Assembly (NCBI GenBank): GCA_029260935.1
Contig: JAJDCJ010000012.1
Location: 33,315-97,314 of the forward strand
From: Patescibacteria group bacterium
Lineage (GTDB): Bacteria > Patescibacteriota > Minisyncoccia > Phycocordibacterales > Phycocordibacteraceae
Direction: 5' to 3'
DNA: 64,000 bases
Shown here: piece after piece, positions 8,988 to 54,120 of the stretch
Position numbering within the stretch: the first letter of the stretch is position 1
How the letters are laid out: the number at the start of each line of letters is the position of its first letter
The notes under the pieces: generated by a model
What the model was told of the DNA's origin: nothing
The model's input: the letters and a program-made list of their open reading frames with translations, nothing else
The model's database searches: none
Position numbers and translations under genes: made by a program

Positions 8988-9776
8988 CTACCTGGCATTC
9001 AGCTGTGTATACTCCACAACACCCTCATTGGAAAAGTCTGGCCGGCTGTCGGGGATGACGGCGTCGTAAAATAGAGCCGGAATACCGATGTCTGCCACAT
9101 AGACCGTGCCGGACAGTGCTTTGCCCGCTTCGGTTTCAAAGAGCTTTTTTGGAACGGCAAGGGTGAGTGTTGCATCTGCATGCACACATACTCCGGTGCA
9201 CTCACCTGTGGTAGCGTCCGCACCCGACGGAAGGTCGTAGGAAATGACGCGGGCCTTGCTTTTTTGTATTACCTCAATGAGTGTTACAAAAACTCCGCGC
9301 GGAGCACCGAGAAGATGGTACCCAATAAGCGAGTCAATAATAACGTCCGCACCGGTTATTTTTTTCTGCATCTTTTCTTTCTCCTGTTCTTTGTAAACAG
9401 AAATTGGGATATTCATTTTTGTAAGGAGCGCACAGTGGTGTGCGGGGTCCGGTTTTATGTTTTCATCCGCAAGCACCACTGAAATGTTTTTCCATCCGTG
9501 GTTAAAGAGGTGTCGCACAGCGGAAAGCCCGTCGCCTCCTTTATTCCCCTTTCCGCACACCACCACAACCGCATCTTTTTTTGAGATTTTTTCTTTTTCA
9601 AACACACTCACCATATGGAACCCCGCCAGCTCCATCATTTGCCGTATCTCAAGACCGCCCGCAACCGCAACGCGGTCAAGCTCTTCTATTTCTTTTGTCG
9701 TGTAGTGCATAGTTTTAGCGTTTACTAGCCCCATTATACCCATCAAATCCACCCTATGATGGACGCCCAACGTCAA
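8988..9776 (-). CDS. NAD(P)H-hydrate epimerase (YjeF N-terminal domain)
   Basis: VVVCGKGNKGGDGLSAVRHL motif; likely start at the internal MGLVNAKT. Confidence 0.65.
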   Translation of the reverse strand: MTLGVHHRVDLMGIMGLVNAKTMHYTTKEIEELDRVAVAGGLEIRQMMELAGFHMVSVFEKEKISKKDAVVVVCGKGNKGGDGLSAVRHLFNHGWKNISVVLADENIKPDPAHHCALLTKMNIPISVYKEQEKEKMQKKITGADVIIDSLIGYHLLGAPRGVFVTLIEVIQKSKARVISYDLPSGADATTGECTGVCVHADATLTLAVPKKLFETEAGKALSGTVYVADIGIPALFYDAVIPDSRPDFSNEGVVEYTQLNAR

Positions 9777-12284: not shown

Positions 12285-12827
12285 CTATCGCATCAAAGTA
12301 GACTTAAAAAGTTTTTCTTGTGTTGCTTTCTTTAAAACATCATCAAGTGAATGCCGAAACCAATATGTATAGTGCTCTTTGTGATTGTGTATATCTTCTT
12401 GTAGTGCTTTGAGTTCAATCCATTTCCAATCATCCGCCTCTTCAGGGTGTAGCACTGGAGGTTGGTCGGATATTCCAACAAGGACGTGGTCATATTCGTG
12501 TTCAATAAGACCATTAGGAAATTCTGTCTTATACACAAATGAATGCACCTCAGTAAGGTCGCAATCAAAGCCCATTTCCTCTTGAAGTCTGCGGTGGGCG
12601 GCATCTAAAGTACGTTCATTGGGCCGTGGGTGACTACAGCATGTATTTGTCCATAACCCACCTGAGTGGTATTTATCTTGCGCCCTTTTCTGAAGTAGCA
12701 TTCGCCCGTCAGGATGAAAAATAAATACTGAAATTGCGCGGTGCAGTTTCCCCTGCCTGTGAGCTGCAAGTTTTTCCATCGTTCCAATGTGTTCGTCGTT
12801 TTCGTTTACAAGAATGACCTCTTCCAT
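12285..12827 (-). CDS. idi: isopentenyl-diphosphate delta-isomerase, type 1 (Nudix)
   Basis: HRAISVFIF and WTNTCCSHP motifs plus a glutamate cluster. Confidence 0.85.
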   Translation of the reverse strand: MEEVILVNENDEHIGTMEKLAAHRQGKLHRAISVFIFHPDGRMLLQKRAQDKYHSGGLWTNTCCSHPRPNERTLDAAHRRLQEEMGFDCDLTEVHSFVYKTEFPNGLIEHEYDHVLVGISDQPPVLHPEEADDWKWIELKALQEDIHNHKEHYTYWFRHSLDDVLKKATQEKLFKSTLMR

Positions 12828-13868: not shown

Positions 13869-15176
13869 TCAAAAAGATAAAACACTCAGCATGCTCTCAA
13901 TTGATTCTCGTAAGTCGCTTTCATTAAAATCAGGTCTAGCTGTTTCATCTGCATGATGAATTTTATTTCTTATGGATACAGGAAGAGACTCAATAACAAC
14001 ATCTCCGACTTTACATGTTGAGTGAGAAATAGTCGCAGTAAACTGACTTGCTTTTCTTACGTTCGAATCTCCATCTAATTTCCTTTTTAGTTGACTGTAG
14101 CCCCCTTCTTTTACCTCCAAAGCAGCGAAAAGCTCGATATGTAATAGTTCATCGACGATATCATAAACTTTATAGTTTATTAAATTTAAACTGGGACCGC
14201 CTCCAATCATGTTTTTATAAAACCCAATCTTTTCACCTATCTGCTCCTTATTTCTGTCAATCTTGTAACACACGCTTTTCCCGTCCCTCAATCCTTGCAG
14301 GATGTACGGAGAATGAGTTGCTATCACAAATTGAATATCTAAACCCGTAAACACATCCGTTAGAAACTGAATATATTTCTTCTGCCACTTAGGATGCAAA
14401 CTTGTCTCTGGTTCATCAATTAGTATTAAAGAACCGTCTAAATTTTCTAACTCTTTTAAAAGGTGACCGACTCTATAAATTATTTGTTTCTCTCCTGTGC
14501 TAAATGTACCCAAACCAACTTCGTTACTGTTTTCGTCTGTGAAGACAATCTTCAGTTCACCATCTTGAGGCTTAACAGTTTTGAATGTTTTTGTCCCATT
14601 AAACATTTTTTCAAATGCATTTGTAAATCTTTCAATTTTACGAGTATGTTGCTCTGGAATTTTTCCATGCTCTGCAATGTAGTCATCGATAAAAGTCGCA
14701 TCCTGGGTCTTAAGATTAACTAACAGTTGAGGAATTACCTCAGATAAATCCTCAGACTCTTCTCTTGGGTTCCTTTTCTCATCTATGGTTATTGCGGTTG
14801 CAGAAGTAACTTTAGGATTTTTAAAACCAACAGCAACCCTATCGTAAATAACTTTTAAATCTTTTGGGTGATTATCACTGCTAATTCGACTGTCCTCTAC
14901 ATTGATTTTCATTTCGGTGTACTCTTCGCCATCCAGGAGAGAAAGTACGGCTTTTATTTCATTACTGTCCACGTGTATTAAGTAACCCTCTTCTGTCTTT
15001 CCCAAGCTGTTATAAATCAAATCAAGAATGGACGTCTTTCCATATCCATTCTCACCAGCCAAAAAGAAGAAAGAGGGTATATTCTTTTTATCCTCAGACT
15101 TTTCAAAAAGTGTTAAAACTGAATCCCCTTTGAACGCAGGATGTGAAGTAAATTTGATTTGTTGAAGTTTTTTCAT
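13869..15176 (-). CDS. ABC/SMC-type P-loop ATPase (AAA_21/AAA_15-like), second gene of a two-gene operon
   Basis: Walker A LAGENGYGKTS, signature-like FSTGEKQ, Walker B LILIDEPETSLHP, H-loop ATHSP, and a 120-aa C-terminal extension with no TOPRIM or HNH motif. Confidence 0.75.
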   Translation of the reverse strand: MKKLQQIKFTSHPAFKGDSVLTLFEKSEDKKNIPSFFFLAGENGYGKTSILDLIYNSLGKTEEGYLIHVDSNEIKAVLSLLDGEEYTEMKINVEDSRISSDNHPKDLKVIYDRVAVGFKNPKVTSATAITIDEKRNPREESEDLSEVIPQLLVNLKTQDATFIDDYIAEHGKIPEQHTRKIERFTNAFEKMFNGTKTFKTVKPQDGELKIVFTDENSNEVGLGTFSTGEKQIIYRVGHLLKELENLDGSLILIDEPETSLHPKWQKKYIQFLTDVFTGLDIQFVIATHSPYILQGLRDGKSVCYKIDRNKEQIGEKIGFYKNMIGGGPSLNLINYKVYDIVDELLHIELFAALEVKEGGYSQLKRKLDGDSNVRKASQFTATISHSTCKVGDVVIESLPVSIRNKIHHADETARPDFNESDLRESIESMLSVLSF

Positions 15177-15679
15177 TTTTTATCATCAGTATTCCAAAAT
15201 CTCTCAACCTCTTCCTGTTTCTTTTTCCTTTCTGAATCCAACTCATTCCTAAATGACTGCCCCAATTCATTTGCAAATCTATTTTCAATTTCTTCAACTC
15301 TTAGGTATGCTTCACGACCTTCATTTTGGTGTTCTTTACTGCTTTCGTCATCTTCACTTTCTAATGATAGATAATGTGAAGAATTTTGTCTGCTGAGATT
15401 GTACGCGTAATCTTTCCAATCTTCAGCTAAACGAACCAATTTAGATTGATCATGTTTATGTTTTTCTTTCAATCGAATGTACCAGTCTTTCATTCTTACT
15501 ACTTCTGGTTCATCTTCTTCCAACCCATAGGCAACCTTAGCTGTTGTTCTGTATGAATTAAGCATTAAGTCTGCAAATTCCTCGTATTTTTCTATCTTTT
15601 TTGCAGGTGTCGAATCAAGCACTAGTTTTGCTATGTACCAAATTGCCACGATTATTAAAATTGTATAAATAAAACTCAT
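15173..15679 (-). CDS. membrane-anchored coiled-coil protein, first gene of the operon (start corrected to MSFIYTIL)
   Basis: N-terminal TM helix IYTILIIVAIWYIAKLVL followed by a highly charged E/K/D-rich region; overlaps the ATPase gene by 4 bp (ATGA). Confidence 0.55.
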   Translation of the reverse strand: MSFIYTILIIVAIWYIAKLVLDSTPAKKIEKYEEFADLMLNSYRTTAKVAYGLEEDEPEVVRMKDWYIRLKEKHKHDQSKLVRLAEDWKDYAYNLSRQNSSHYLSLESEDDESSKEHQNEGREAYLRVEEIENRFANELGQSFRNELDSERKKKQEEVERFWNTDDKK

Positions 15680-15780
15680 ATCTTTTATTCTATCGCAACC
15701 ACCATATTTATATAGTAAGTTGCCTGCAACGCTCTTCGAGCGCACGAGATCGCTATATTCCTCGAGCTAGCTCGATTTGG
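15680..15780 (-). promoter_or_regulatory. conserved 5' flank/promoter of cassette locus A (homologous to 43350-43447)
   Basis: Shares TTGCGATAG(A/T)ATAAAA(G/A)AT immediately before the ATG, plus CTCGTGCGCTCGA and GAGCTAGC blocks, with locus B. Confidence 0.7.
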
Positions 15781-15935
15781 CTGGGGGACAGGGACTCGAA
15801 CCCCGATTGATGGCACCAGAAACCATAGTCCTACCGACAAGCGAGTGAGGGTCACAGGAAAGTTTACTTTCATATGACCGAACGAGCGCAGTCGGAAAGC
15901 TTTGCTTACCACTGGACGATCCCCCAAGGCGTTAG
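15781..15935 (-). tRNA. tRNA-Gln(CUG) interrupted in the D-loop by an 81-nt insertion
   Basis: The exons fold into a canonical 74-nt tRNA with U1-A72, G73, D-arm GUCC/GGAC, anticodon loop UUCUGGU and T-loop UUCGAGU. The insert starts AGCAAAGCUU. Confidence 0.6.
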
Positions 15936-20019: not shown

Positions 20020-20931
20020 TTATTCTACCGCACTTTCTTTCATTGCGTCTATAAAGCTATCCAGAACCCCTTCAAAGACAGCATCAACATCGCTTTCTTC
20101 AACGCCGGTACGGTGATCTTTCACCATTTTATAGGGATGCTGGACATAGGAGCGTATTTGGCTCCCCCATTCAATTGGTGTGTGTGCGGCGATTGAAAGT
20201 CCTTGGCGTTCTTTTTCCTTCCGTTCCTCTTCTTTTTTAAAGAGCTTTGACTTTAAAAGCGCCAATGCTCGTTCGCGGTTTGCCTGCTGACTTCGCTCGT
20301 TTGACACATGCACTGAAAGTCCTGACGGCGTATGAGTAATACGCACCGCTGTTTCTCTTTTGTTTACATTCTGTCCGCCAGCGCCTCCTGATTTTGTAAA
20401 TTGAATTTCCAAATCATCTTCGTCCATTTCAATTTTATTTTGTGCACCAAGGTCAGGGAGGACTTCAACCAGCGCAAAAGAAGTCTGCCTCTTATCGTTT
20501 GCATTAAAAGGCGAGAGTCGCACCAGGCGATGCACCCCTGCTTCATGCTTTAAATTACCATATACACCCTTACCTTTAATTTCAAAAGTAACGTTTCGGT
20601 ACCCACCGTGATTATTTTCGTGGTCATGTAGAAAAGTGACGGTATAGCCCTTTTTGTCAGCATATCCTTGATACATTCTAAAAAGCATTCCTACGAAGTC
20701 CTCAGCATCATCACCTCCTGCGCCAGCTAAAATTGCAAGAGTAGCGGAACCTGCATCATGAGGCGAAACTCCTTCGGCTACAGAAGCAAGGTCTTTCATT
20801 TCTTTTATCAAAGACTGTGCCTTGTCTTTATCTACCCAAAAATCAGGTTGCCCCATAGCCGCTTCAATTTCAGCAATACGCATTTTTGCTTCTTTTTTGT
20901 CCATACACAGTACGCTACCATATTTTGGCAA
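20020..20931 (-). CDS. prfB: peptide chain release factor 2
   Basis: SPF tripeptide (RLSPFNAN) and GGQ motif (SGGAGGQNVN). Confidence 0.85.
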   Translation of the reverse strand: MPKYGSVLCMDKKEAKMRIAEIEAAMGQPDFWVDKDKAQSLIKEMKDLASVAEGVSPHDAGSATLAILAGAGGDDAEDFVGMLFRMYQGYADKKGYTVTFLHDHENNHGGYRNVTFEIKGKGVYGNLKHEAGVHRLVRLSPFNANDKRQTSFALVEVLPDLGAQNKIEMDEDDLEIQFTKSGGAGGQNVNKRETAVRITHTPSGLSVHVSNERSQQANRERALALLKSKLFKKEEERKEKERQGLSIAAHTPIEWGSQIRSYVQHPYKMVKDHRTGVEESDVDAVFEGVLDSFIDAMKESAVE

Positions 20932-21022
20932 AACAGACTTTTTTGGGTAAGATACTGAGGTGTTGGGGTACGTAAAACTTTCCTTGGCACTACTCAGACA
21001 AAGTCAGTAGTGTGCCGTTGTA

Positions 21023-21157
21023 AGCAAAGCTTGCACCGGCGGCGTTCTAACAAAATATACTCACGGGCGGTTTTGTTCTTTCAGAAAAATGTAAACGAGC
21101 TTTCATTTTTCTTCTATCACAAAACCACGCGCTTCGCGCAATTTCCGTGAGCAACTT
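21023..21157 (+). mobile_element. about 135-nt inserted element beginning AGCAAAGCTT, flanked by a 9-bp duplication of the tRNA-Thr 5' end
   Basis: GCCGTTGTA occurs at 21014-21022 and again as the first 9 nt of the tRNA at 21158-21166. Confidence 0.5.
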
Positions 21158-21233
21158 GCCGTTGTAGCTCAGCTGGTAGAGCGCATCCATGGTAAGGATG
21201 AGGTCCCCGGTTCAAACCCGGGCAACGGCTCCA
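21158..21233 (+). tRNA. tRNA-Thr(GGU)
   Basis: Cloverleaf with anticodon loop AUGGUAA, T-loop UUCAAAC, encoded CCA. Confidence 0.85.
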
Positions 21234-21762: not shown

Positions 21763-21878
21763 CTATACCAATTCTACCGTCCCCCAGTATGTCCTATCGG
21801 GGGGGTGCTTTTTATTCTTATTTTCCACAATCATCTGTTACCCCCCCCTATAGACACTGGATGTCCATGGGGGATTCA

Positions 21879-21931
21879 GCCACGTAAAAGTAAATATGGA
21901 CACGCCGTGTCCATATTTACTTTTACGTGGC
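21879..21931. repeat. 53-bp perfect palindrome
   Basis: GCCACGTAAAAGTAAATATGGACACG / CGTGTCCATATTTACTTTTACGTGGC; its 27-bp core recurs at 44164-44196. Confidence 0.9.
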
Positions 21932-21932
21932 T

Positions 21933-22090
21933 CTCCGGCGAAGCCGGACCCAGCTCCGCCGGGCGGTCCGCATATGTAAGCAAAGCTTCCTCTCATCGAT
22001 CACTCGGAAGAGTAACCGCATTCACTCTTCCCTCGCTTCTCTCGATAGTAAAGAAAAACAGTACGCAGGTACTGTTTGTTCTTTCATATG
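21933..22090. repeat. repeat-family copy: GCTCCGCCGGGC motif, GTAAGCAAAGCTT, internal hairpins, ending at the tRNA-Asp 3' end
   Basis: Shares GCTCCGCCGGGC and GTAAGCAAAGC with the 48786-49225 array, and TTTGTTCTTTCA with 21023-21157. Confidence 0.6.
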
Positions 22091-22165
22091 CGCGGCCGAC
22101 CGGACTCGAACCGGCAACCTCCCGCGTGACAGGCGGGTGCTACTAACCAATTGAGCTACGGCCGC
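22091..22165 (-). tRNA. tRNA-Asp(GUC)
   Basis: Anticodon loop CUGUCAC, T-loop UUCGAGU, acceptor GCGGCCG/CGGCCGC. Confidence 0.8.
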
Positions 22166-22850
22166 ATTTCGGATACAGAGTATGTATTGCCTTCGAAAAT
22201 AGCTCGTATTTCCTTGGTAAATACAGTTCTGTATTAGGGCTAGTATGATACATCAGCTTGTAAAGTGCAAGACTATCGCGATGACTAAAAACAAGTTCAA
22301 AGCCTCGCTTCTTGTACTTTTCTAAAACAAATCCCCTATTCAGACCATTTTCTCTAAGAGTACTAAAGAGTGTTAGAAGAAATTTTTGAGATCCTGACGT
22401 GAATCTGCTTGTAAATACCCAACGTTTTTTGTTTCGATCTTTAGCAAAATATTTTTTAAAATGAACGCTGCCGTCGCCATCAAAATATCCCCTGACGAAA
22501 TGATGTAAATATCCTTGAGGGACTTTTGGGAAACAGATTGTTTTGCTTTTGTTTTGAGTGAAACCAAGTTTTATCAAATCAGAGAACCATTCTCTACTTC
22601 CAAACTGCACGCGATACTGTTGCTTCCATTTTTCGTTCCTTTGAGGACGTTCCGAAATTTTCTGAGTTCCTCCGACAATCTTCCGTAATTTTTGAAGCAA
22701 AATTTTGTCTGTAGATGTAAATTCAATATAGTGTCCTCCTCTTTTATTCTCAATCATTGAACCGTCTGCGGCAAAATACCCCAATACATACGCCATGTCT
22801 GATGTCCACGTTTTGAAAAAGTCTTGGTTTAGCTTCTTTTTTATTGGCAC
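22143..22850 (-). CDS. double-motif LAGLIDADG homing-endonuclease-family protein, free-standing, directly 5' of tRNA-Asp
   Basis: Two motifs, VLGYFAADGSM and VRGYFDGDGSV, spaced about 100 aa apart; the 3' end overlaps the tRNA 5' region by about 23 nt. Confidence 0.7.
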   Translation of the reverse strand: MPIKKKLNQDFFKTWTSDMAYVLGYFAADGSMIENKRGGHYIEFTSTDKILLQKLRKIVGGTQKISERPQRNEKWKQQYRVQFGSREWFSDLIKLGFTQNKSKTICFPKVPQGYLHHFVRGYFDGDGSVHFKKYFAKDRNKKRWVFTSRFTSGSQKFLLTLFSTLRENGLNRGFVLEKYKKRGFELVFSHRDSLALYKLMYHTSPNTELYLPRKYELFSKAIHTLYPKCGRSSIG

Positions 22851-24161: not shown

Positions 24162-24401
24162 TTATTTGGTAGGTCCCTTGGTACTGCCATGCCCACGACA
24201 CCCTTCGCATTTTTTAAATAGGTCTTCTACGAACCAACCGCCACGATTTCCGCAATGTTGACACCCTCCACCTTCACACTTCCTACATATATGCCACGAT
24301 TTTCCATACCCAGACCCCTTACATTTTGTACAAATAGTAGGATCAAAATCTTTTTTGTATTGAGTTTCAAACATATGGTGCCGACGGCAGGAATTGGTCA
24401 C
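24162..24401 (-). CDS. small DnaJ-type zinc-finger protein (four CxxCxGxG repeats); likely start MFETQYKK
   Basis: CTKCKGSG, CRKCEGGG, CQHCGNRG, CEGCRGHG; the annotated N-terminus overlaps the tRNA-Met-derived repeat. Confidence 0.55.
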   Translation of the reverse strand: MTNSCRRHHMFETQYKKDFDPTICTKCKGSGYGKSWHICRKCEGGGCQHCGNRGGWFVEDLFKKCEGCRGHGSTKGPTK

Positions 24402-24768
24402 CCGTCGCTAACCATTTTACTTCATAAACTCGTAAAATGCTAATCGCGCTCCACCCCGACTCGGCAACGTGTGCTCCGCCACGGCTTCGCACCCTCTGTC
24501 TTTCAATTCCTTCCGTCTTGTTCAAATTGTAAAAAATACTATGCATGCGCATAGTATTTAACAATTTGTGCCGACGGCAGGAATTGGTCAGGAGTCCATG
24601 AAAATTAGAGTCACTGCCGTTCCTTAATTTTCTATGGCTCACGACCCTGGCTCGGCGACAAGCACTCGTCGTACCTCCTCGTCTTGTATACCGCCTCCGC
24701 CTTTCAATTCCTGTCAATCAGGCACATTGTAAAAAACACCATACTCAAACGTATGATGTTTTACAATG
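24367..24768. repeat. two tandem about-200-bp units, each ending with a copy of the tRNA-Met 3' end (GTGCCGACGGCAGGAATTG)
   Basis: The 19-mer occurs at 24367, 24568 and 24768 (the last is the tRNA itself). The units share CTCGGC, CTTTCAATTCCT and TTGTAAAAAA blocks. Confidence 0.8.
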
Positions 24769-24844
24769 TGTGCCGACGGCAGGAATTGAACCTGCGACCT
24801 TAGCTTTATGAGTGCTACGCTCTAACCAACTGAGCTACGCCGGC
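24769..24844 (-). tRNA. tRNA-Met(CAU) elongator-type (could be the k2C Ile2 species)
   Basis: Acceptor GCCGGCG/CGUCGGC, anticodon loop CUCAUAA, T-loop UUCAAUU. Confidence 0.75.
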
Positions 24845-24896
24845 AAACGAGGAAGATAATGGAAGTGCGGAGCAATTACATTATTTCCGAGTGCAG

Positions 24897-25070
24897 CCGA
24901 CGCAAGCTCCGCTTACGCCGGCAAACTGCTTACGAGGATAGCGCGAAGCGCGTGTTTTTGCGAGTGAAGAAAAACAGAAGCTTGTTTATGTTTTTCTGAG
25001 AGAGCAAAAAAACTCGAAAGCGTATTCTGTCAGAGTGGGCCCGACGCAAGCTCCGCTTACGCCGGCAAAC
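24897..25070. repeat. two copies of a 30-nt acceptor-stem minihelix repeat CCGACGCAAGCTCCGCTTACGCCGGCAAAC
   Basis: Copies at 24897-24926 and 25041-25070. Read on the minus strand they give GCCGGCG-UAAGCGGAGCUUG-CGUCGGC, reproducing the tRNA-Met acceptor stem. Confidence 0.75.
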
Positions 25071-25121
25071 TCTTTCAGTTCTCAAAAAATACCATTTTTT
25101 GATGGAAAAAGAAATAAAAAA

Positions 25122-25450
25122 TGTTGCGGGGCCCAGAATCGAACTGGGGTCTGGAGGTTCTTTTACACTCAATGTTTCCAAAGAGAATGGACTATACCAT
25201 GGTCCACGTGGGACCCTCCCATTATAGTCTCTGAACCTTCCGAGCTATATCAAACGATATGGCTTGGCTTGGCTGCTGATTACCGAATCAACTTGCTTTT
25301 TAAACCATCGCACTCACCCTCTCAGGTCATGCTGTGGTGCAAGAAGCTCTAACGGCTTTCCAGCAATTTAGAGAGTTTTCCACCGTCTGTTGCCAAACGG
25401 GGTCACGTTCTTCACATGAGCCTCCCGAGGTACCTCTCCTCTACCCCGCG
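25122..25450 (-). ncRNA. about 330-nt structured RNA with tRNA-like T-arm and acceptor end; possible tmRNA (ssrA), unconfirmed
   Basis: 3' end CCCAGUUCGAUUCUGGG-CCCCGCA-A-CA pairs with 5' CGCGGGG. The region has no ORF and smpB is present in the window. There is no G3-U70 pair and no classic tag. Confidence 0.35.
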
Positions 25451-34018: not shown

Positions 34019-34255
34019 AAGAGACGCTCCGTAATACGGGTATTTTGGAGAGCGCTCCGGGCCGCGAGATTAAGTCTTACTCTCCAAAATACCCGTATTA
34101 CTTCGCTGAGGTTGAGGAACCGAACGCTTACCCAAGTCTTACGCTCTCAAATACTCATTTTGCTCCGCTAAAGTATAAGAACCAGGGCCGCGAGATTAAG
34201 TCTTACGCTCCAAAATACCCGTATTACTTCGCTGAGGTTGAGGAACCGAACGCTA
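34019..34255. repeat. pilA upstream region: 22-nt inverted repeat plus two copies of a 72-nt direct repeat (period 132)
   Basis: GGCCGCGAGATTAAGTCTTAC...GAACCGAACGCT at 34052-34124 and 34184-34255; GTAATACGGGTATTTTGGAGAG is inverted against CTCTCCAAAATACCCGTATTAC. Confidence 0.8.
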
Positions 34256-34300
34256 GGCAAAGTCTAAGTCTGCAACAGTACCGTTTTACTGAGCGACCTT

Positions 34301-43447: not shown

Positions 43448-43468
43448 GGCGGAGACGCAGGGATTCGG
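43448..43468. repeat. partial copy of the tRNA-Ser 3' end (GCGGAGACGCAGGGATTCGG)
   Basis: Matches 43641-43661, the tRNA T-arm and acceptor, at 20 of 21 positions. Confidence 0.75.
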
Positions 43469-43639
43469 TCACCTTTACTAAGTATTTTACTCCTCTCGTT
43501 CGTAAAACACTAAGTGACGCGACCCCGTCGGCTACTACTGCGTATTCTCGCAGGCTTCGCAGTAGCCTCTTTTCGAATCCCTCATCGTCCGTAGAATGTA
43601 CAAGCCAAAATGCTATTCGCATCAGGGCTTACCATTTTA

Positions 43640-43728
43640 TGCGGAGACGGAGGGATTCGAACCCTCGAGGGGTATTACCCCCTGGCACATTAGCAGCGTG
43701 CTGGTTTCAACCACTCACCCACGTCTCC
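43640..43728 (-). tRNA. tRNA-Ser(GCU), class II with long variable arm
   Basis: Acceptor GGAGACG/CGUCUCC, D-arm GGU/ACC with loop GAGUGGUUGAA, anticodon loop CUGCUAA, variable arm CAGGGGGUAAUACCCCUCG, T-loop UUCGAAU. Confidence 0.8.
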
Positions 43729-43772
43729 AATCAGTTCACTAGTTTTACATCGTTACGGATGAGAGACGAAGG

Positions 43773-43791
43773 ACCACTCACCCACGTCTCC
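43773..43791. repeat. partial copy of the tRNA-Ser 5' end (CCACTCACCCACGTCTCC)
   Basis: Duplicates 43711-43728, about 45 nt beyond the tRNA 5' end. Confidence 0.75.
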
Positions 43792-44085: not shown

Positions 44086-44196
44086 TAGCACAGTACCTAC
44101 GTATATAAATACGTATTTATATACGTAGGTGTTGTAAGAAACAAAAACCCTTTCACACACTAGTTGAAATATGGACACGGCGTGTCCATATTTCAA
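44086..44196. promoter_or_regulatory. divergent intergenic region with two perfect palindromes
   Basis: Palindrome 1 (44086-44119): CCTACGTATATAAATACG/CGTATTTATATACGTAGG. Palindrome 2 (44164-44196): TTGAAATATGGACACG/CGTGTCCATATTTCAA. Both lie between the AbrB-like gene and zwf. Confidence 0.7.
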
Positions 44197-46568: not shown

Positions 46569-48713
46569 ATGGTACTTGACGACCTTTTGGGCACCCATAC
46601 CCGTCTTACAAAACACCACACCCCCGGGCTTGAAAAGCTCGGGATTACAACGGTGCGCGACCTCCTCTATCACCTGCCAAGCCGGTATGAATCTTCAGCT
46701 GATATTAGACAAGTTAAAAATGTTACCTCAGGAGAAACGGTAGTGCTGTATGGACAATTTTCAAAACTAGAAACAAAGCGTTCATTTAAAACGCGCGTGC
46801 CTATAGCGGAAGGAACATTCAGCGACGATACTGGCTCAGTAAAAGTAACGTGGTTTCATCAGCCATACCTTGCAAAAATGATTCCTACGGGACAGTTAGT
46901 GCGACTCCGCGGTAAAGTAACGGAACGCTCGGGAAGAAAATATATCGCAAACCCCACTGTTGAAAAAACAGACGGCATTCCTTTACTGGAGGGACGTGAC
47001 GGGCTCTTTCCGGTCTACCCCGAGTCGCTTGGACTTTCGTCCCTGTGGGTGTATCACACGGTGCAGAAGTTATTGCGCGACATTGACTGGGACACTGTTG
47101 TTGATCCTCTTCCTGAGGCAATCCGCAAAAAATACCATTTACCCGATATTAAATCAGCGCTCATCTTTGCACACGAGCCAAAAAAAGAAAAAGACGCTGA
47201 GGCCGCGCGCAAGCGTTTTGCGTTTGAAGAAGTGTTCCTTATCCAAATAGCACGCGCGCTTCAAAGAGAAGCACACACCCAGGAACACTCCTATGAGGTT
47301 TCGGTTGAACCTGACCTCATTCAAGAGTTTATTGACTCGTTCCCTTTTACACCGACTTTAGGACAAACAACATCTATTAATGAAATCCTTGAGGACTTTA
47401 AAAAACCGGCACCTATGTATCGCCTTCTTGAGGGCGATGTCGGCAGTGGAAAAACAGCAGTTGCTGCGGCAACCGCATACGCAGTTGCCACGAGCAGGCC
47501 AAAAAACTCAAACGGGGAAAAGCAGTCTTTCGGACGATTGCAGGTTGCCTACATGGTACCGACTGAAATACTTGCCAAACAACACTTTAAAACATTCACT
47601 GATTTTTTTATTGACCACCCATTGAACATTGGGTTGATTACCGGTAGCGGATGTTACAAGTTTCCCTCTAAAGTAAAACCAACAGAGGCAACACCGCTTT
47701 CACGTGCGCAGTTTTTAAAGCTGGTTAAAAACGGCGAGATACCTATTGTTATCGGCACTCATGCACTCATTCAAAAAACAATTGAATTTAAACACCTCGC
47801 CTACGCCATTATTGATGAACAACATCGCTTTGGAACAGTACAGAGAAAGAAAATTACTACGAAAAACGATACGCAACCACACCTGCTTTCAATGACCGCA
47901 ACCCCCATTCCCCGCACACTAGCGCTCACCCTGTATGGCGACCTGGATTTAACAGTACTTGAACACATGCCGCAAGGTAGAAAAGAAATACAAACCGAAA
48001 TAATAACTCCCGCACACCGCGCTCGCGCATATGAGCACATACGAGCCCTTATAAAAGAAGGTCGGCAAGCGTATGTTATTTGCCCCCGCATTGATGAACC
48101 GGACCCCACCAAACACATGGCGCTCCAGACACGTTCAGTTGCAAGTGAAGTAAAAAAATTGTGCACTGACGTGTTTCCTGAATACTCAATTGGAAAACTT
48201 CACAGCCGCATGACACCGAAGGAAAAAACAGAAGCTATGGAAGCTTTTGAAAAAGGAGAAACTGATATTTTGGTTTCAACAAGTGTGGTTGAAGTGGGGG
48301 TGAATGTGCCGAATGCAACGGTTATTATGATTGAAGGAGCAGAGCGTTTTGGGCTGGCACAACTTCATCAACTCCGCGGTCGGGTGATGCGTTCCAGTCA
48401 CCAGCCCTACTCATATTTAATGGTTGAATCAAATGCAAAAGCAGAATCAGCACGCCTCAAGGCAATTGTAAAAGCAAAAAACGGCTTTGAGTTAGCAGAG
48501 AAAGATTTAGAAATACGTGGCGCCGGCGAGCTGTACGGAGCGCGACAGTCCGGCCTCTCCGACATCGGCATGGAGGCGCTGAAAAACTTGAAACTGGTAG
48601 AAGCGGCGCGAAGCGAAGCCAGCCTCCTAGTAAAAAAAGACCCGACCCTTAAAAAACATCCAGTTCTTTTGGAACGGGCCCAAAAAACCGTGAAGGCGTT
48701 GCATTTTGAATAA
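46569..48713 (+). CDS. recG: ATP-dependent DNA helicase RecG
   Basis: Wedge domain followed by a DEQH helicase core with GDVGSGKT Walker A; 714 aa. Confidence 0.85.
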   Translation: MVLDDLLGTHTRLTKHHTPGLEKLGITTVRDLLYHLPSRYESSADIRQVKNVTSGETVVLYGQFSKLETKRSFKTRVPIAEGTFSDDTGSVKVTWFHQPYLAKMIPTGQLVRLRGKVTERSGRKYIANPTVEKTDGIPLLEGRDGLFPVYPESLGLSSLWVYHTVQKLLRDIDWDTVVDPLPEAIRKKYHLPDIKSALIFAHEPKKEKDAEAARKRFAFEEVFLIQIARALQREAHTQEHSYEVSVEPDLIQEFIDSFPFTPTLGQTTSINEILEDFKKPAPMYRLLEGDVGSGKTAVAAATAYAVATSRPKNSNGEKQSFGRLQVAYMVPTEILAKQHFKTFTDFFIDHPLNIGLITGSGCYKFPSKVKPTEATPLSRAQFLKLVKNGEIPIVIGTHALIQKTIEFKHLAYAIIDEQHRFGTVQRKKITTKNDTQPHLLSMTATPIPRTLALTLYGDLDLTVLEHMPQGRKEIQTEIITPAHRARAYEHIRALIKEGRQAYVICPRIDEPDPTKHMALQTRSVASEVKKLCTDVFPEYSIGKLHSRMTPKEKTEAMEAFEKGETDILVSTSVVEVGVNVPNATVIMIEGAERFGLAQLHQLRGRVMRSSHQPYSYLMVESNAKAESARLKAIVKAKNGFELAEKDLEIRGAGELYGARQSGLSDIGMEALKNLKLVEAARSEASLLVKKDPTLKKHPVLLERAQKTVKALHFE

Positions 48714-48742
48714 ACGGCTCAACCTTGATTGAGCCGTTTATT
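48712..48742 (+). terminator. hairpin AAACGGCTCAACCTTGATTGAGCCGTTT after recG
   Basis: Inverted repeat followed by a T-rich tail. Confidence 0.6.
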
Positions 48743-48785
48743 CATACCAACTGACCCTTCTGCAAGATGGCAGTGTGTAGGCTTG

Positions 48786-49225
48786 TTTGTCGTCACAAGT
48801 AATTTTCCTGACGGAAAATTTTCGCGCGACCAATTTCTCTTATGAGTCAGACGAATTAGAGAAATGGAAGTACTCCTGTGGTGACCCCGGCTCGCCCGGC
48901 TCCGCCGGGCTGCGCCTCTCGGACATGTACGCGAAAACGCCAAGCAGTTGGCTTACGTGTCGTCACAGATAATCCTTCGTCGCCACTCAGGATTTCCGCG
49001 ACCCCGGCTCGTGGTTTTTCCTGCTGGAAAAACATCACTGCGCCTCGGACAAACGCACAAAAACCTGCCGCAGGGCAGGTCTTTGTGTACTTGTCGTCAC
49101 AAGTTGCTAAGTATTTTAGAGCGCTTCGCTTCTAGAATACTAAGCACTCGCGACCCCGGCTCGCCCGGCTCCGCCGGGCTGCGCCTCTCGAACCAGCGCC
49201 GTAAGCAAAGCAGTTTGCTTACTAA
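48786..49225. repeat. tandem array of three composite repeat units (130-170 nt each)
   Basis: Each unit is TGTCGTCACARRT, a unit-specific palindromic hairpin, CGCGACCCCGGCTCG, a second hairpin (CCCGGCTCCGCCGGG in units 1 and 3), CTGCGCCTC(T)CG, then a variable tail. Unit 3 ends with GTAAGCAAAGCAGTTTGCTTAC. Confidence 0.8.
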
Positions 49226-49260
49226 TAAAAAACATCCCTCTATAACTGGGGATGTTTTTT
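49226..49260. terminator. hairpin AAAAAACATCCC...GGGGATGTTTTTT, bidirectional
   Basis: Perfect stem flanked by A and T runs, immediately 3' of tRNA-Ile. Confidence 0.6.
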
Positions 49261-49267
49261 ATTACGC

Positions 49268-49345
49268 TGGTCCGCCCTCTTGGACTCGAACCAAGAAACC
49301 TTCTAGGTATAAGCTAGATGCTCTAACCAATTGAGCTAAGGGCGG
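49268..49345 (-). tRNA. tRNA-Ile(UAU)
   Basis: Acceptor CCGCCCU/AGGGCGG, D-arm GCUC/GAGC, anticodon stem UCUAG/CUAGA with loop CUUAUAC, T-loop UUCGAGU, encoded CCA. Confidence 0.75.
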
Positions 49346-53240: not shown

Positions 53241-53293
53241 CCCCGAAATTGTCCGAATTGTCCGAAGTCTAGACTTCGGACAATTTCGGGGGG
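53241..53293 (+). terminator. nested palindrome CCCCGAAATTGTCCGAA[TTGTCCGAAGTCTAGACTTCGGACAA]TTTCGGGG after smpB
   Basis: 26-nt perfect inner palindrome inside an outer 8-bp stem. Confidence 0.55.
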
Positions 53294-54120
53294 TGATCGG
53301 CTTCGACAATAAGTTTTTGTTTTCTACGTGCAAAACGGTGAATGCTGGAGAACACCTTAAACCTCGAGTAAATACAACGTGCAAACGCTGTAAAGAGTCC
53401 GTACCAAGCCCTTTTGGGTCTTGGTCAACTCGTTCCTGTTCGCGCGTAAGCGTAGAACGGCATCACATTCTCTGACTCCTGATATGGGAGTGCTGGTGTA
53501 ATACCATCAGGATAAGGAAGCGACGTGCTCGTTCGCTTCTCAAAAATTAAGAGCTCGATACCACATGCTTTTGTTTACTTTTTATATGTGTTATTTAAAA
53601 CCCTAAAGTAAACTACGTTTTGTAGAATCGTCTTAAACTTTCTTGTTGCATCCGGGTTCGATTCCCGGCATCTCCACAGCTGAACGAACCGCCTTTCGAG
53701 GCGGTTTTCGTTTTGCTGAGAGATGGAGCGAGTGAACTGCTTCACTCGCGTTGGGAATTGAAAGCCGGAATGCCACACCTCGCGAGGTGTGGCATGCGTC
53801 GGGTCGCGGAATTTCCGAGTGGCTGACGAGGAAATATCTGTGACCGATGCGTGCGAGCGCCAGCGAAGACACTTCTCGGCATCTCCACCAGTGAAATAAA
53901 ATACCGCCCAGCTCGGGTGGTATTTATTTTTCCTTACAAACTACAAAAACAAGTTATCTCCCCTTTCCAATTATGAGAACACGCGTAGCACCCACCCGAT
54001 TTTCCTTTACATCTATTGCAGAGCACCGTCCCCGTACCACAACAAGCGCTACACCACTTCGTCTCTTTTAGAGCTCTTTTCTCAGACATACCTACTTACT
54101 ATTAATAGTATACTAGCCAT
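53294..54120. other. about 830-bp ORF-poor region with two tRNA-3'-end-like fragments, palindromes and two hairpin-plus-T-run terminators
   Basis: T-arm plus acceptor-like TTGCATCCGGGTTCGATTCCCGGCATCTCCACA at 53646-53678 and a CGGCATCTCCACCA copy at 53887-53900. Perfect palindrome GCCACACCTCGCGAGGTGTGGC. Only short overlapping ORFs. Confidence 0.5.

Follow-up and report, generated by a model that had tools for sequence, protein, structure and literature searches.

Why should a tRNA gene be accompanied, on both sides, by partial copies of itself? The question is raised by the tRNA-Met(CAT) gene in a stretch of 64,000 nucleotides (nt), referred to here as the window, from a Patescibacteria group bacterium (GenBank assembly GCA_029260935.1, contig JAJDCJ010000012.1, positions 33,315 to 97,314). 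Two units of approximately 200 bp, each ending in a copy of the 3' end of the tRNA, lie downstream from this gene, and two hairpins that repeat its acceptor stem lie upstream. The answer proposed here, with a probability of roughly 60%, is that the downstream units are two old, diverged members of a family of structured RNAs located immediately 3' of the tRNA and transfer-messenger RNA (tmRNA) genes of the Patescibacteria, on the same strand as these genes. The tRNA gene is placed as follows, in window coordinates:

24844..24770, minus strand: tRNA-Met(CAT), called by ARAGORN and matching the Rfam tRNA model at 71 bits; its last 19 nt (24770-24788) are the repeated 19-mer

The 19-mer, GTGCCGACGGCAGGAATTG on the plus strand, is found at 24378-24396, 24568-24586, and 24770-24788, with no other match at up to two mismatches in the window, and none in 100 shuffles. 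It corresponds to positions 56-74 of tRNA-Met, from C56 of the T-loop to the discriminator plus one nucleotide, and the gene itself does not encode the CCA. A first-pass annotation, made from the sequence alone, had described this gene as flanked on both sides by partial copies of itself, and the three 19-mers and two upstream acceptor-stem hairpins, with 0 expected by chance, bear this description out. The spacing of the copies is 190 and 202 bp, in place of the period of 200-201 bp given there. The same pattern had been attributed to the tRNA-Ser(GCU) locus, where it is indeed present, with a 3' copy at 43449-43467 (CGAATCCCTGCGTCTCCGC, in agreement with the tRNA at 18/19 positions) and a 5' copy that forms only a weak hairpin (fold z = -1.2):

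43762..43791, minus strand: 5' copy at the tRNA-Ser locus, in which CCUU joins tRNA-Ser positions 1-19 to the acceptor 3' strand

The pattern, behind which something directed at tRNAs had been suspected, is real and non-random.

The repeats are the ends of longer units, seven of which were recognized in the window. The scores given below are those of a model (R2) made from 97 other sequences, with the Met and Ser units left out.

24724..24769, minus strand: terminator-like hairpin T1 (ACAUUGUAAAACAUCAUAC...GUAUGGUGUUUUUUACAAUGU), an inverted repeat directly after tRNA-Met
24568..24719, minus strand: unit MetU1; R2 match 24575-24716(-), 55.9 bits, E = 2.7e-15
24524..24567, minus strand: terminator-like hairpin T2, between MetU1 and MetU2; 32/46 identical to T1
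24378..24519, minus strand: unit MetU2; R2 match 24385-24515(-), 35.3 bits, E = 9.3e-9
43449..43592, minus strand: unit SerU, downstream of tRNA-Ser(GCT) 43728..43641; R2 match 43456-43585(-), 27.1 bits, E = 3.8e-6
49200..49086, 49059..48950, and 48933..48780, minus strand: three tandem Ile units, after tRNA-Ile(UAU) 49345..49268
53749..53889, plus strand: tmRNA unit, downstream of the tmRNA 53289-53679; R2 match 53749-53855(+), 46.6 bits, E = 2.5e-12

Each of the seven units closely follows a tRNA or tmRNA gene encoded on the same strand, and 4 of the approximately 10 tRNA and tmRNA genes of the window bear between one and three of these elements of 110-200 nt. The order of the parts on the tRNA strand is a terminator-like hairpin, a 5' arm antisense to tRNA positions ~54-69, a core of approximately 105-120 nt, the motif GUGAC or CUGAC, and the sense 19-mer; two elements in tandem would thus give three 19-mers in a row. 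T1 may act as a terminator, but was not called in a consensus terminator scan.

In MetU1, the 5' arm (24719..24705, GAUUGAC-AGGAAUUG) is antisense to the T-arm and the acceptor 3' strand of the tRNA, the core reads AAAG-GGC-GGAG-[hairpin]-CGAG-CC-AGG-GUCGUG..[hairpin]..CCUGAC, and the 3' arm (24586..24568) is a 19/19 copy of tRNA positions 56-74. Folded alone, the unit forms the closing helix, at -54.1 kcal/mol (z = -3.7). The 5' arm of MetU2 (24519..24504, AAGACGGAAGGAAUUG) reads GACGGAAGGAAUUGAA where the exact antisense is GACGGCAGGAAUUGAA; its 3' arm (24396..24378) is again a 19/19 copy, which runs on as ...GGCACCA, and the ATG of the open reading frame (ORF) 24162-24374 lies 3 nt past the end of the unit. 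The fold of MetU2 has a free energy of -49.1 kcal/mol (z = -3.4). The cores of MetU1 and MetU2 are only 57% identical, and T1 and T2 are also diverged, at the 32/46 given above, yet all three 19-mers are identical.

The SerU core is homologous to those of the Met units, and its arms (5' GACGAUGAGGGAUUCG; 3' CGAAUCCCUGCGUCUCCGC, 18/19 with tRNA-Ser positions 56-74) fit tRNA-Ser instead; it folds at -62.7 kcal/mol (z = -6.6). Both arms of the tmRNA unit, the 5' flank GAGAUGGAG...GGGAAUUGAAAG and the 3' arm CGAU[28-nt insert]CGGCAUCUCCACC, mirror the 3' end of the tmRNA, CGAUUCCCGGCAUCUCCAC. The Ile units score 50.1, 70.5, and 25.9 (+15.4) bits with R2, the third being interrupted by an insert, and their arms are not copies of the T-arm (3' arm GACAAG...), but form the bases of the long flanking hairpins.

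The units had been described as devoid of genes, and nothing supports a gene within them, although an Arg-rich ORF of 116 aa with a TTG start (24367-24717, minus strand) spans both Met units. This ORF is probably a by-product of the composition of the sequence.

The family was delimited by a core pattern scan of metagenome contigs, which returned 120 loci, of which ~70 were genuine (GC <0.6 and the full motif set), and the rest chance matches in high-GC DNA. Sixteen minimal members were aligned with MAFFT (alignment A2), with a structure that was assigned and checked by hand rather than fitted to a model. A model built from this alignment (R1) retrieved 97 matches, which form the model-fitted alignment A3. 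The consensus on the tRNA strand is 5' arm-AAA-G-N-C-G(G/C)A-variable hairpin-GA-G-N'-C-GGG-GUCGCG(A/G)...bulged A...(C/U)UUGUGAC-3' arm. The family fold is a three-way junction closed by a helix, P1. The second helix, P2, is a 3-bp G-N-C/G-N'-C helix with a GGA/GA internal loop and a variable hairpin, followed by a GGG linker. The third, P3, starts with GUCGCG and ends with UGUGAC; it has a bulged A and a G.U pair that hardly varies.

This fold is well marked by covariation. In A2, 84.7% of the cells are paired, compared with 68% in shuffles and 36-43% in slid controls, and P2 and P3 are 97-100% paired, with numerous double changes. In A3, where fitting to the model inflates the pair counts, 87.6% of the cells of 97 sequences are paired (62.6% in shuffles, 34-44% in slid controls), and double changes are found in 33/34 pairs. 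The middle pair of P2, for example, is C-G in 49 sequences, G-C in 35, A-U in 3, and U-A in 3, while the fourth pair of P3 is G.U in 91/96 sequences. The conserved G.U positions pair only on the tRNA strand, which argues for a structure at the RNA level on that strand. Given that R2 was made without the Met and Ser units and still scores them, these units are members of the family, albeit divergent ones.

The lineages in which the family is found range from 31 to 58% in GC content. Three matches were found among the named-genome contigs listed, all in metagenome-assembled genomes of Paceibacterota and Nomurabacteria, of which L018 is one; these contigs came from a search with GatA (the best match listed being 56% identical) and were reused as a negative control, in which ~60 control loci from other phyla gave no family match. 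A pattern scan of viral contigs returned a single true locus, with bacterial-looking genes, and four chance matches in high-GC DNA, and a blastn search against phages matched only the tRNA itself. Searches of Rfam 15, at the gathering threshold and at E<=10 for the Met locus, the Ile locus, and a canonical member, recovered the tRNA and chance matches only, with no RtT, T-box, ribozyme, or Y-RNA-like family among them, and literature searches found no described trailer RNA of tRNA genes in the Candidate Phyla Radiation (CPR). The family is absent from Rfam, and its members would appear, from their sequences, to be uncurated tRNA-trailer RNA elements of the Patescibacteria. The features observed are a conserved three-way-junction fold, adjacency to tRNA or tmRNA genes in the same orientation, arms derived from the tRNA, and no linked protein.

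In several members the 3' arm is interrupted by one and the same small insert, (A)AGCGUACUCGC(G/U)G, which splits the tRNA-derived sequence (L179, at 9440-9480, and L094, L130, L142, and L105). Inserts of the AGCGUACUCGC type may be an optional structural module.

The association with tRNA genes was counted in the 55 units for which 500 nt or more of sequence was available on either side, taking a tRNA within 450 nt as the neighbor. The tRNA was upstream on the same strand in 37/55 units and upstream on the opposite strand in 2/55; a downstream tRNA was found on the same strand in 8/55 and on the opposite strand in 5/55. The median gap between the end of the tRNA and P2 is 55 nt, a distance taken up almost entirely by the hairpin and the 5' arm. 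Several of the units with no called tRNA follow a tmRNA or lie deeper in an array, and a few follow protein genes, after a hairpin (L171, L212). In sum, members are found after nearly every kind of tRNA, as well as after tmRNA.

The arms obey a simple rule. In 20/20 informative units (Arg, Leu, Val, Ser, Pro, Phe, Met, Gln, Cys, Ile), the 3' arm starts exactly at C56, and the copy usually ends at tRNA position 73-76, and sometimes a few nucleotides beyond. The junction GUGAC|C56 is identical across unrelated tRNAs and genomes. A second class of arms, seen after Lys, Ile(UAU), Glu, and some Arg tRNAs, consists of the last 3-4 nt of the tRNA and the base of the terminator stem.

This distribution bears on the possibility that the Met units are passive relics, left by a tandem duplication of tRNA-Met with its spacer and the subsequent deletion of most of the extra tRNA, with no function of their own. 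Unequal crossover is the classical view of the repeats at the tyrT locus of Escherichia coli. The head-to-tail arrangement, the period of ~200 bp, and the homology of T1 and T2 would be expected from such events, and in two metagenomic loci (L097, L099) the trailer is part of a recent duplication of 60 nt or more. Deletion, however, leaves the antisense arm unaccounted for, and would have to produce the same C56 junction in every case, to set cores with 57% identity beside arms with 19/19, and to conserve compensatory changes across the whole range of GC content. The covariation and the distribution across tRNAs already contradict this explanation, which is considered highly improbable.

The arms suggest how the units might work. 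The 5' arm of P1 is antisense to the T-loop, the T-stem, and the acceptor 3' strand, and the 3' arm copies the tRNA from C56 to the discriminator. The 5' arm would thus stand in for the T-stem 5' strand and part of the acceptor 5' strand, and the core for the T-loop, so that P1 would recreate the stack of T-stem and acceptor and leave a tRNA-like, single-stranded 3' tail. The hairpin and the 5' arm lie too close together for a promoter to fit between them, so that transcription would start at the tRNA promoter and read through the terminator-like hairpin. Because the unit stops at the discriminator, its 3' end may be set by the tRNA end-processing enzymes, and the action of RNase P, RNase Z, and CCA addition may free and stabilize the element, as reported for the RtT RNA of E. 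coli. The freed RNA would display a mimic of the 3' end of that particular tRNA. Selection or short-tract conversion would keep the arms the same as the tRNA, whereas the cores would be free to drift. The acceptor minihelices found 5' of the tRNA, described below, would be a second, clade-restricted class of tRNA-end mimic, located in the leader.

The RtT RNA (RF00391) is the closest known system, and the Patescibacteria family may be called RtT-like by analogy. At the tyrT locus of E. coli K-12, there are six copies of the sequence ATCCTTCCCCCACCA: one in each of the two tRNA-Tyr genes, one in the spacer, and three downstream, at a period of 178 bp. Rfam places four RtT RNAs there, and the annotation includes rttR and the protamine-like tpr ORF. 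In the RtT consensus of Rfam, GGGGAAGGAU pairs with AUCCUUCCCC to form a closing helix, followed by the tail CACCACCA. The RtT RNA is described as being processed from the tyrT transcript and as possibly tied to the stringent response (bioRxiv 10.1101/2024.07.17.603846).

Both systems consist of tandem non-coding units of ~180-200 bp, directly 3' of a tRNA and on its strand, which end in a copy of the tRNA 3' segment (15-18 nt plus CCA, in six copies, in E. coli; 19/19 in the Met units). In both, an antisense arm and a tRNA-derived arm form the closing helix, with a tail of acceptor strand and CCA in E. coli, and the repeats are spanned by a pseudo-ORF rich in Arg (tpr in E. coli; 24367-24717 in the window). 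The differences are as follows: RtT has nested helices that enclose two small hairpins, and its copied block begins at about position 59, whereas the Patescibacteria family is a simple three-way junction with a block that begins at C56; RtT is restricted to enterobacterial tRNA operons, whereas the Patescibacteria family follows nearly every tRNA, and tmRNA, with arms that match each one. RF00391 gave no match at E<=10 in 24300-25130, in 48650-49300, or in the canonical member L198, and R2 matched the E. coli tyrT locus only at E>=0.1. With no homology detectable in either direction, the family is described as working like RtT rather than as a member of RF00391.

Modules that resemble tRNAs are also found on other RNAs, such as the plant tRNA-snoRNA dicistrons processed by RNase Z, the MALAT1-mascRNA pair, and the acceptor/T-arm minihelices that are substrates of RNase P, RNase Z, and the CCA enzyme. 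As in these cases, a helix that mimics the acceptor and T-stem, with a discriminator-type 3' tail, would be joined to a non-tRNA RNA beside a tRNA gene, and the stem of the 5' minihelix of the window, at 12 bp, is as long as an acceptor stem and a T-stem combined. The mimic in the Patescibacteria family differs in that it is often incomplete, with the acceptor unpaired, and has a core of ~100 nt in place of the T-loop.

Other known systems were considered and set aside. The hammerhead, twister, HDV, and hairpin ribozymes and the 5S rRNA, which were considered on the basis of motifs, had no Rfam support, and neither had k-turn C/D guides, TnpB/IscB omega RNA, or IS110 bridge RNA; nor was a matching partner gene found nearby for any of them. 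The TIGR arrays, which are also present in the CPR, are composed of short, dual-spacer repeats of ~36 nt beside a Nop-domain Tas gene (PMC12045711); the units analyzed here measure 140-200 nt, and no Nop-domain Tas or Cas neighbor was found, so that TIGR or CRISPR-like guide arrays were rejected. A promoter scan and manual inspection gave no convincing support for a sigma-70 promoter inside the units or the minihelix.

The number of units varies among relatives (~72-74% identical in GatA, none of them near-identical), rather than being invariant, which the first-pass annotation had linked to ancient, fixed duplications. At tRNA-Met there are two units in the window, an empty trailer in L001, and, in L085, a single unit with a different core (type B), whose arms fit the different tRNA-Met of that genome. 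Three units follow tRNA-Ile(UAU) in the window and one follows it in the roughly syntenic L187. At tRNA-Asp, two type-A units are present in L085 and an array in L018, with arms that copy tRNA-Asp, and none in the window, while units after tmRNA are found in at least four lineages. The MetU1 core is closer to a unit after tRNA-Ser in L140 (0.75) and to one after tRNA-Asp in L018 (0.66) than it is to MetU2, and the MetU2 core is nearer to SerU (0.64) than to MetU1 (0.57). Because occupancy differs and the Met cores resemble other loci more than each other, the cores appear, from these comparisons, to be old and partly exchangeable between loci, with the arms kept in step with the local tRNA.

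The type B element was also observed in its own right, in L085 (12480-12616) and L001 (~12590-12730). This second trailer element has a different core, GGGGGUCGGGGAA...GUGAGAU, and follows the same rule: the 5' arm is the antisense of the T-arm, and the 3' arm repeats the tRNA 3' end of the species concerned.

Variable occupancy also bears on mobility. Genomic islands and prophages with tyrosine integrases insert in tRNA T-loops, leaving an att repeat on either side of the insert and the tRNA intact; tandem copies can arise, and occupancy differs between relatives. The first-pass annotation had read the 19-mers as att cores left by repeated integration. In a version adapted to the present evidence, the units would be non-autonomous mobile DNA elements (a mini integrative circle, or a REPIN-like or folded-attC-like hairpin) that target the T-loop of the tRNA or the base of the terminator; the 19-nt direct repeat would be the att core, the target duplex would be imitated by the long hairpin into which tRNA 3' end, terminator, and antisense arm fold, and the enzyme would be encoded elsewhere. 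The part of the earlier claim that stands is the repeated block itself, which runs from the T-loop to the 3' end, as in elements that integrate in tRNAs, flanks the insert, and is present in tandem, with a sharp left boundary at 55/56 in all of the 20 informative units. Copy number and presence also vary at orthologous tRNAs (0, 1, or 2 at Met; 1 or 3 at Ile), the tRNAs for Met, Asp, Ser, and Val are followed by one core subtype whose arms differ from case to case, and arrays are found in several genomes, with an assembly gap inside that of L018. The two Met units, moreover, are not mutual closest relatives, and both have perfect tRNA-Met arms, so that they look like two acquisitions, with the arms specified anew each time.

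The integration itself finds less support. The absence of an integrase nearby, reported at first pass, is upheld by a Pfam scan of 20 ORFs of the window, all neighbors of the units included, which returned no integrase, transposase, HUH, or reverse transcriptase domain, although a distant enzyme may act in trans, and no recurrent non-housekeeping neighbor or recombinase lies within 3 kb of the units at 83 loci, where the commonest neighbors are the housekeeping genes for L19, RluA, PilM, FtsH, SmpB, an ABC transporter, SpoU, RuvX, and a tRNA-binding protein. Unlike known att sites, the Met units come with no integrase or cargo, the insert measures just 190-202 bp, and the units of the window add an inverted copy of the same segment and a conserved structure of RNA type. 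Constant ends, independent of the tRNA, were not found: the arms change with Met, Ser, tmRNA, and more than 10 other isoacceptors around a common core, and an element with fixed ends cannot account for arms that differ with each tRNA. The nearly invariant G.U, which is G.T in DNA, and the strict co-orientation with the tRNA in this covarying family fit a transcript better than a DNA site, and units are retained at orthologous positions after tmRNA and tRNA-Ile(UAU), where the flanking genes are only 65-70% identical. A mobile DNA element is thus considered unlikely.

The interpretation of the units as structured trailer RNAs must itself be weighed against several observations. It presumes the transcription, the processing, and a stable product of the units, and the hairpin that precedes each of them is terminator-like, and would limit read-through if it works. 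In many members, P1 pairs only the T-loop and T-stem part and leaves the acceptor strand unpaired, so that the canonical substrate of RNase P or RNase Z would not be formed. A CCA after the 3' arm is not enriched (5/22 units, compared with 3/22 tRNA genes). About half of the members have no arms that copy the T-arm (Lys, Ile(UAU), Glu, and some Arg), and a few follow protein genes, which makes mimicry of the tRNA non-obligatory for the family. The larger alignment, A3, is the one inflated by fitting to the model, and A2, which is independent of it and agrees with it, is small. The matching of the arms to each new tRNA is easier to picture for a mobile element. Lastly, the whole read-through transcript (24370-24850, minus strand) has a minimum free energy (MFE) of -187 kcal/mol (z = -8.4) in a fold in which the cloverleaf is lost. 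In this fold, unit 1 is paired through its 5' arm with the 3' half of the tRNA and through its 3' arm with the 5' arm of unit 2, while the last 19-mer is paired with the 5' acceptor strand of the tRNA. Where the 3' arm and the tRNA differ, and the 5' arm could complement either, the informative sites are too few to decide, and only one of them favors P1.

These alternative pairings leave room for a switch or an insulator that acts in cis on read-through. In such a device, the 5' arm would pair with the 3' half of the tRNA across the terminator, or with the downstream copy (P1), and the element would set the fate of escaped transcripts, through cleavage, decay, or the correct folding of the tRNA, and shield the downstream genes from the strong promoter of the tRNA or tmRNA, with no need of a free RNA. 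The position of the units is well suited to this role, since a terminator-like hairpin always precedes them at close range and the next ORF often begins right behind them (as in MetU2, 3 nt before the ATG), as are the two mutually exclusive predicted pairings, P1 in isolated units and tRNA with 5' arm in the full transcript. The second-class arms, which are the bases of the flanking hairpins, and the few members that follow protein genes after a hairpin also point in this direction. An insulator nevertheless leaves the strong conservation of the core (GGA/GA loop, GGG linker, and invariant G.U) unaccounted for; the downstream genes are mutually unrelated, and pairing with the tRNA is possible only after the RNA polymerase has passed the terminator. 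This function is therefore regarded as quite improbable.

For the trailer RNAs, how the arms follow the tRNA is a mechanistic puzzle, with selection, conversion, and templated copying as the candidates. The matching could result from selection on P1 and the 3' mimic, from short-tract conversion, or, more conjecturally, from template switching across the two nested palindromes. In a doubtful but more far-reaching version, the arms would be actively rewritten from the adjoining tRNA or tmRNA, by DNA synthesis templated by the hairpin across the palindrome of tRNA 3' end, terminator, and antisense arm, or by an RNA template, which would make the elements a self-retargeting class. The same conjecture, jointly or alternatively, makes the freed RNAs isoacceptor-specific 3'-end mimics across the whole genome, acting as decoys or sensors for the readers of tRNA ends. 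These readers would include end-processing or quality-control enzymes, toxins that target tRNAs, and signaling of the stringent type, as once proposed for RtT.

The partial copies on the 5' side of tRNA-Met are of a different kind. The minus strand contains two copies of a 26-nt hairpin, GCCGGCGTAAGCGGAGCTTGCGTCGG, one at 25066..25041 and the other at 24922..24897, where chance would give 0, and related features are found at tRNA-Thr(GGT).

24896..24922, minus strand: proximal minihelix, GCCGGCG-U-AAGC-GGA-GCUU-G-CGUCGGC, 51 nt upstream of tRNA-Met
25040..25066, minus strand: distal minihelix, as the proximal one, with G for C at the last stem base
24914..25071, minus strand: upstream module of 158 nt, extending from the distal minihelix as far as the GUUUGCCGGCGUA with which the proximal one starts
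21014..21040, plus strand: tRNA-Thr(GGT) minihelix, GCCGUUG-U-AAGC-AAA-GCUU-G-CACCGGC, 117 nt upstream of the tRNA

The minihelix is a 12-bp stem formed by the 7-bp acceptor stem of tRNA-Met, a U.G pair, and AAGC/GCUU, closed by a triloop, with free energies of -18 and -22 kcal/mol (z = -2.3 and -3.8) in the two copies. A GUUU leader precedes both copies as well as tRNA-Met itself. The module is shared with the region upstream of tRNA-Thr(GGT), as an inverted repeat (21009-21166 and 24914-25071, 73% identical). An acceptor-strand hairpin was found upstream of 7/134 tRNAs, compared with a mean of 1.75 and a maximum of 5 in permuted controls. The cases, essentially of the clade of the window, are Met (two), Thr(GGT), and Ser in the window, Thr (two) in L085, and Met in L001. 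The AAGC-NNN-GCUU tip is conserved, and the stems track the tRNA of each species. The first-pass reading of these hairpins as acceptor minihelices has structural support, and recurs in relatives with matching changes in the stem. In L001, the minihelix lies ~20 nt from the tRNA, which makes it part of the precursor leader rather than of a promoter. It could be a look-alike for RNase P or the CCA enzyme.

The tip of the minihelix, the motif (G)UAAGCAAAGCUU, was also observed at 21977-21988 (plus strand) and 15897-15908 (minus strand), fused to truncated 5' parts of tRNAs, and in L179 (3879-3990), in a 77-bp tandem repeat upstream of tRNA-Arg. The UAAGCAAAGCUU motif may mark a second tRNA-associated element.

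Partial tRNA copies beside tRNA genes are not automatically the scars of integration, which matters for the programs that call the boundaries of islands and prophages, given that they use exactly this signal. The genomes of the Patescibacteria are very small, and these elements of 110-200 nt represent a large investment for streamlined genomes. The RtT/tyrT repeats of E. coli, long unexplained, can be set beside a much larger and more varied family built on the same plan, an antisense arm plus a copy of the tRNA 3' end, which makes the function of tRNA-trailer RNAs approachable by comparison.

The gene content of the window (GatCAB, LigA, type IV pilins, FtsEX, PrfB, and tmRNA) has the look of a CPR chromosome, and the closest relatives in GatA, named as Patescibacteria, Parcubacteria, or Kaiserbacteria, are 70-74% identical. 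Several other features of its tRNA genes and intergenic regions were recorded.

25126-25449, minus strand: initiator-like tRNA-Met(CAT) with a group I intron in the anticodon loop (RF00028, 55 bits), missed by ARAGORN
15778-15926, minus strand: tRNA-Gln(CUG)-like gene with U1-A72, G73, an encoded CCA, and a D-loop insert of ~73 nt
21878-21932: perfect 27+27-nt palindrome downstream of tRNA-Asp
22143-22850, minus strand: free-standing LAGLIDADG homing-endonuclease ORF, whose 3' end overlaps the 5' end of tRNA-Asp
34031-34265: tandem repeats of 62-64 bp (~3 copies) with an inverted 22-nt partner, intergenic, upstream of the pilus cluster
20020-20990, minus strand: release factor 2, split in two overlapping frames

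The ortholog of the intron-bearing tRNA-Met has the intron in L001 (12229-12534), and none in L085 (12138-12209). The insert of the tRNA-Gln-like gene starts with AGCAAAGCUU, and its GGUCA...UGACC hairpin resembles the P3 of the trailer units. This gene was called by neither ARAGORN nor Rfam, and could be functional, a pseudogene, or a gene that needs an extra processing step. The central 27 nt of the palindrome are found again 22 kb away, at 44167-44193. An arrangement equivalent to that of the LAGLIDADG ORF is present in L085, where the ORF (14661-15299) lies beside tRNA-Asp (15285-15359), and the split in release factor 2 fits its usual programmed +1 frameshift.

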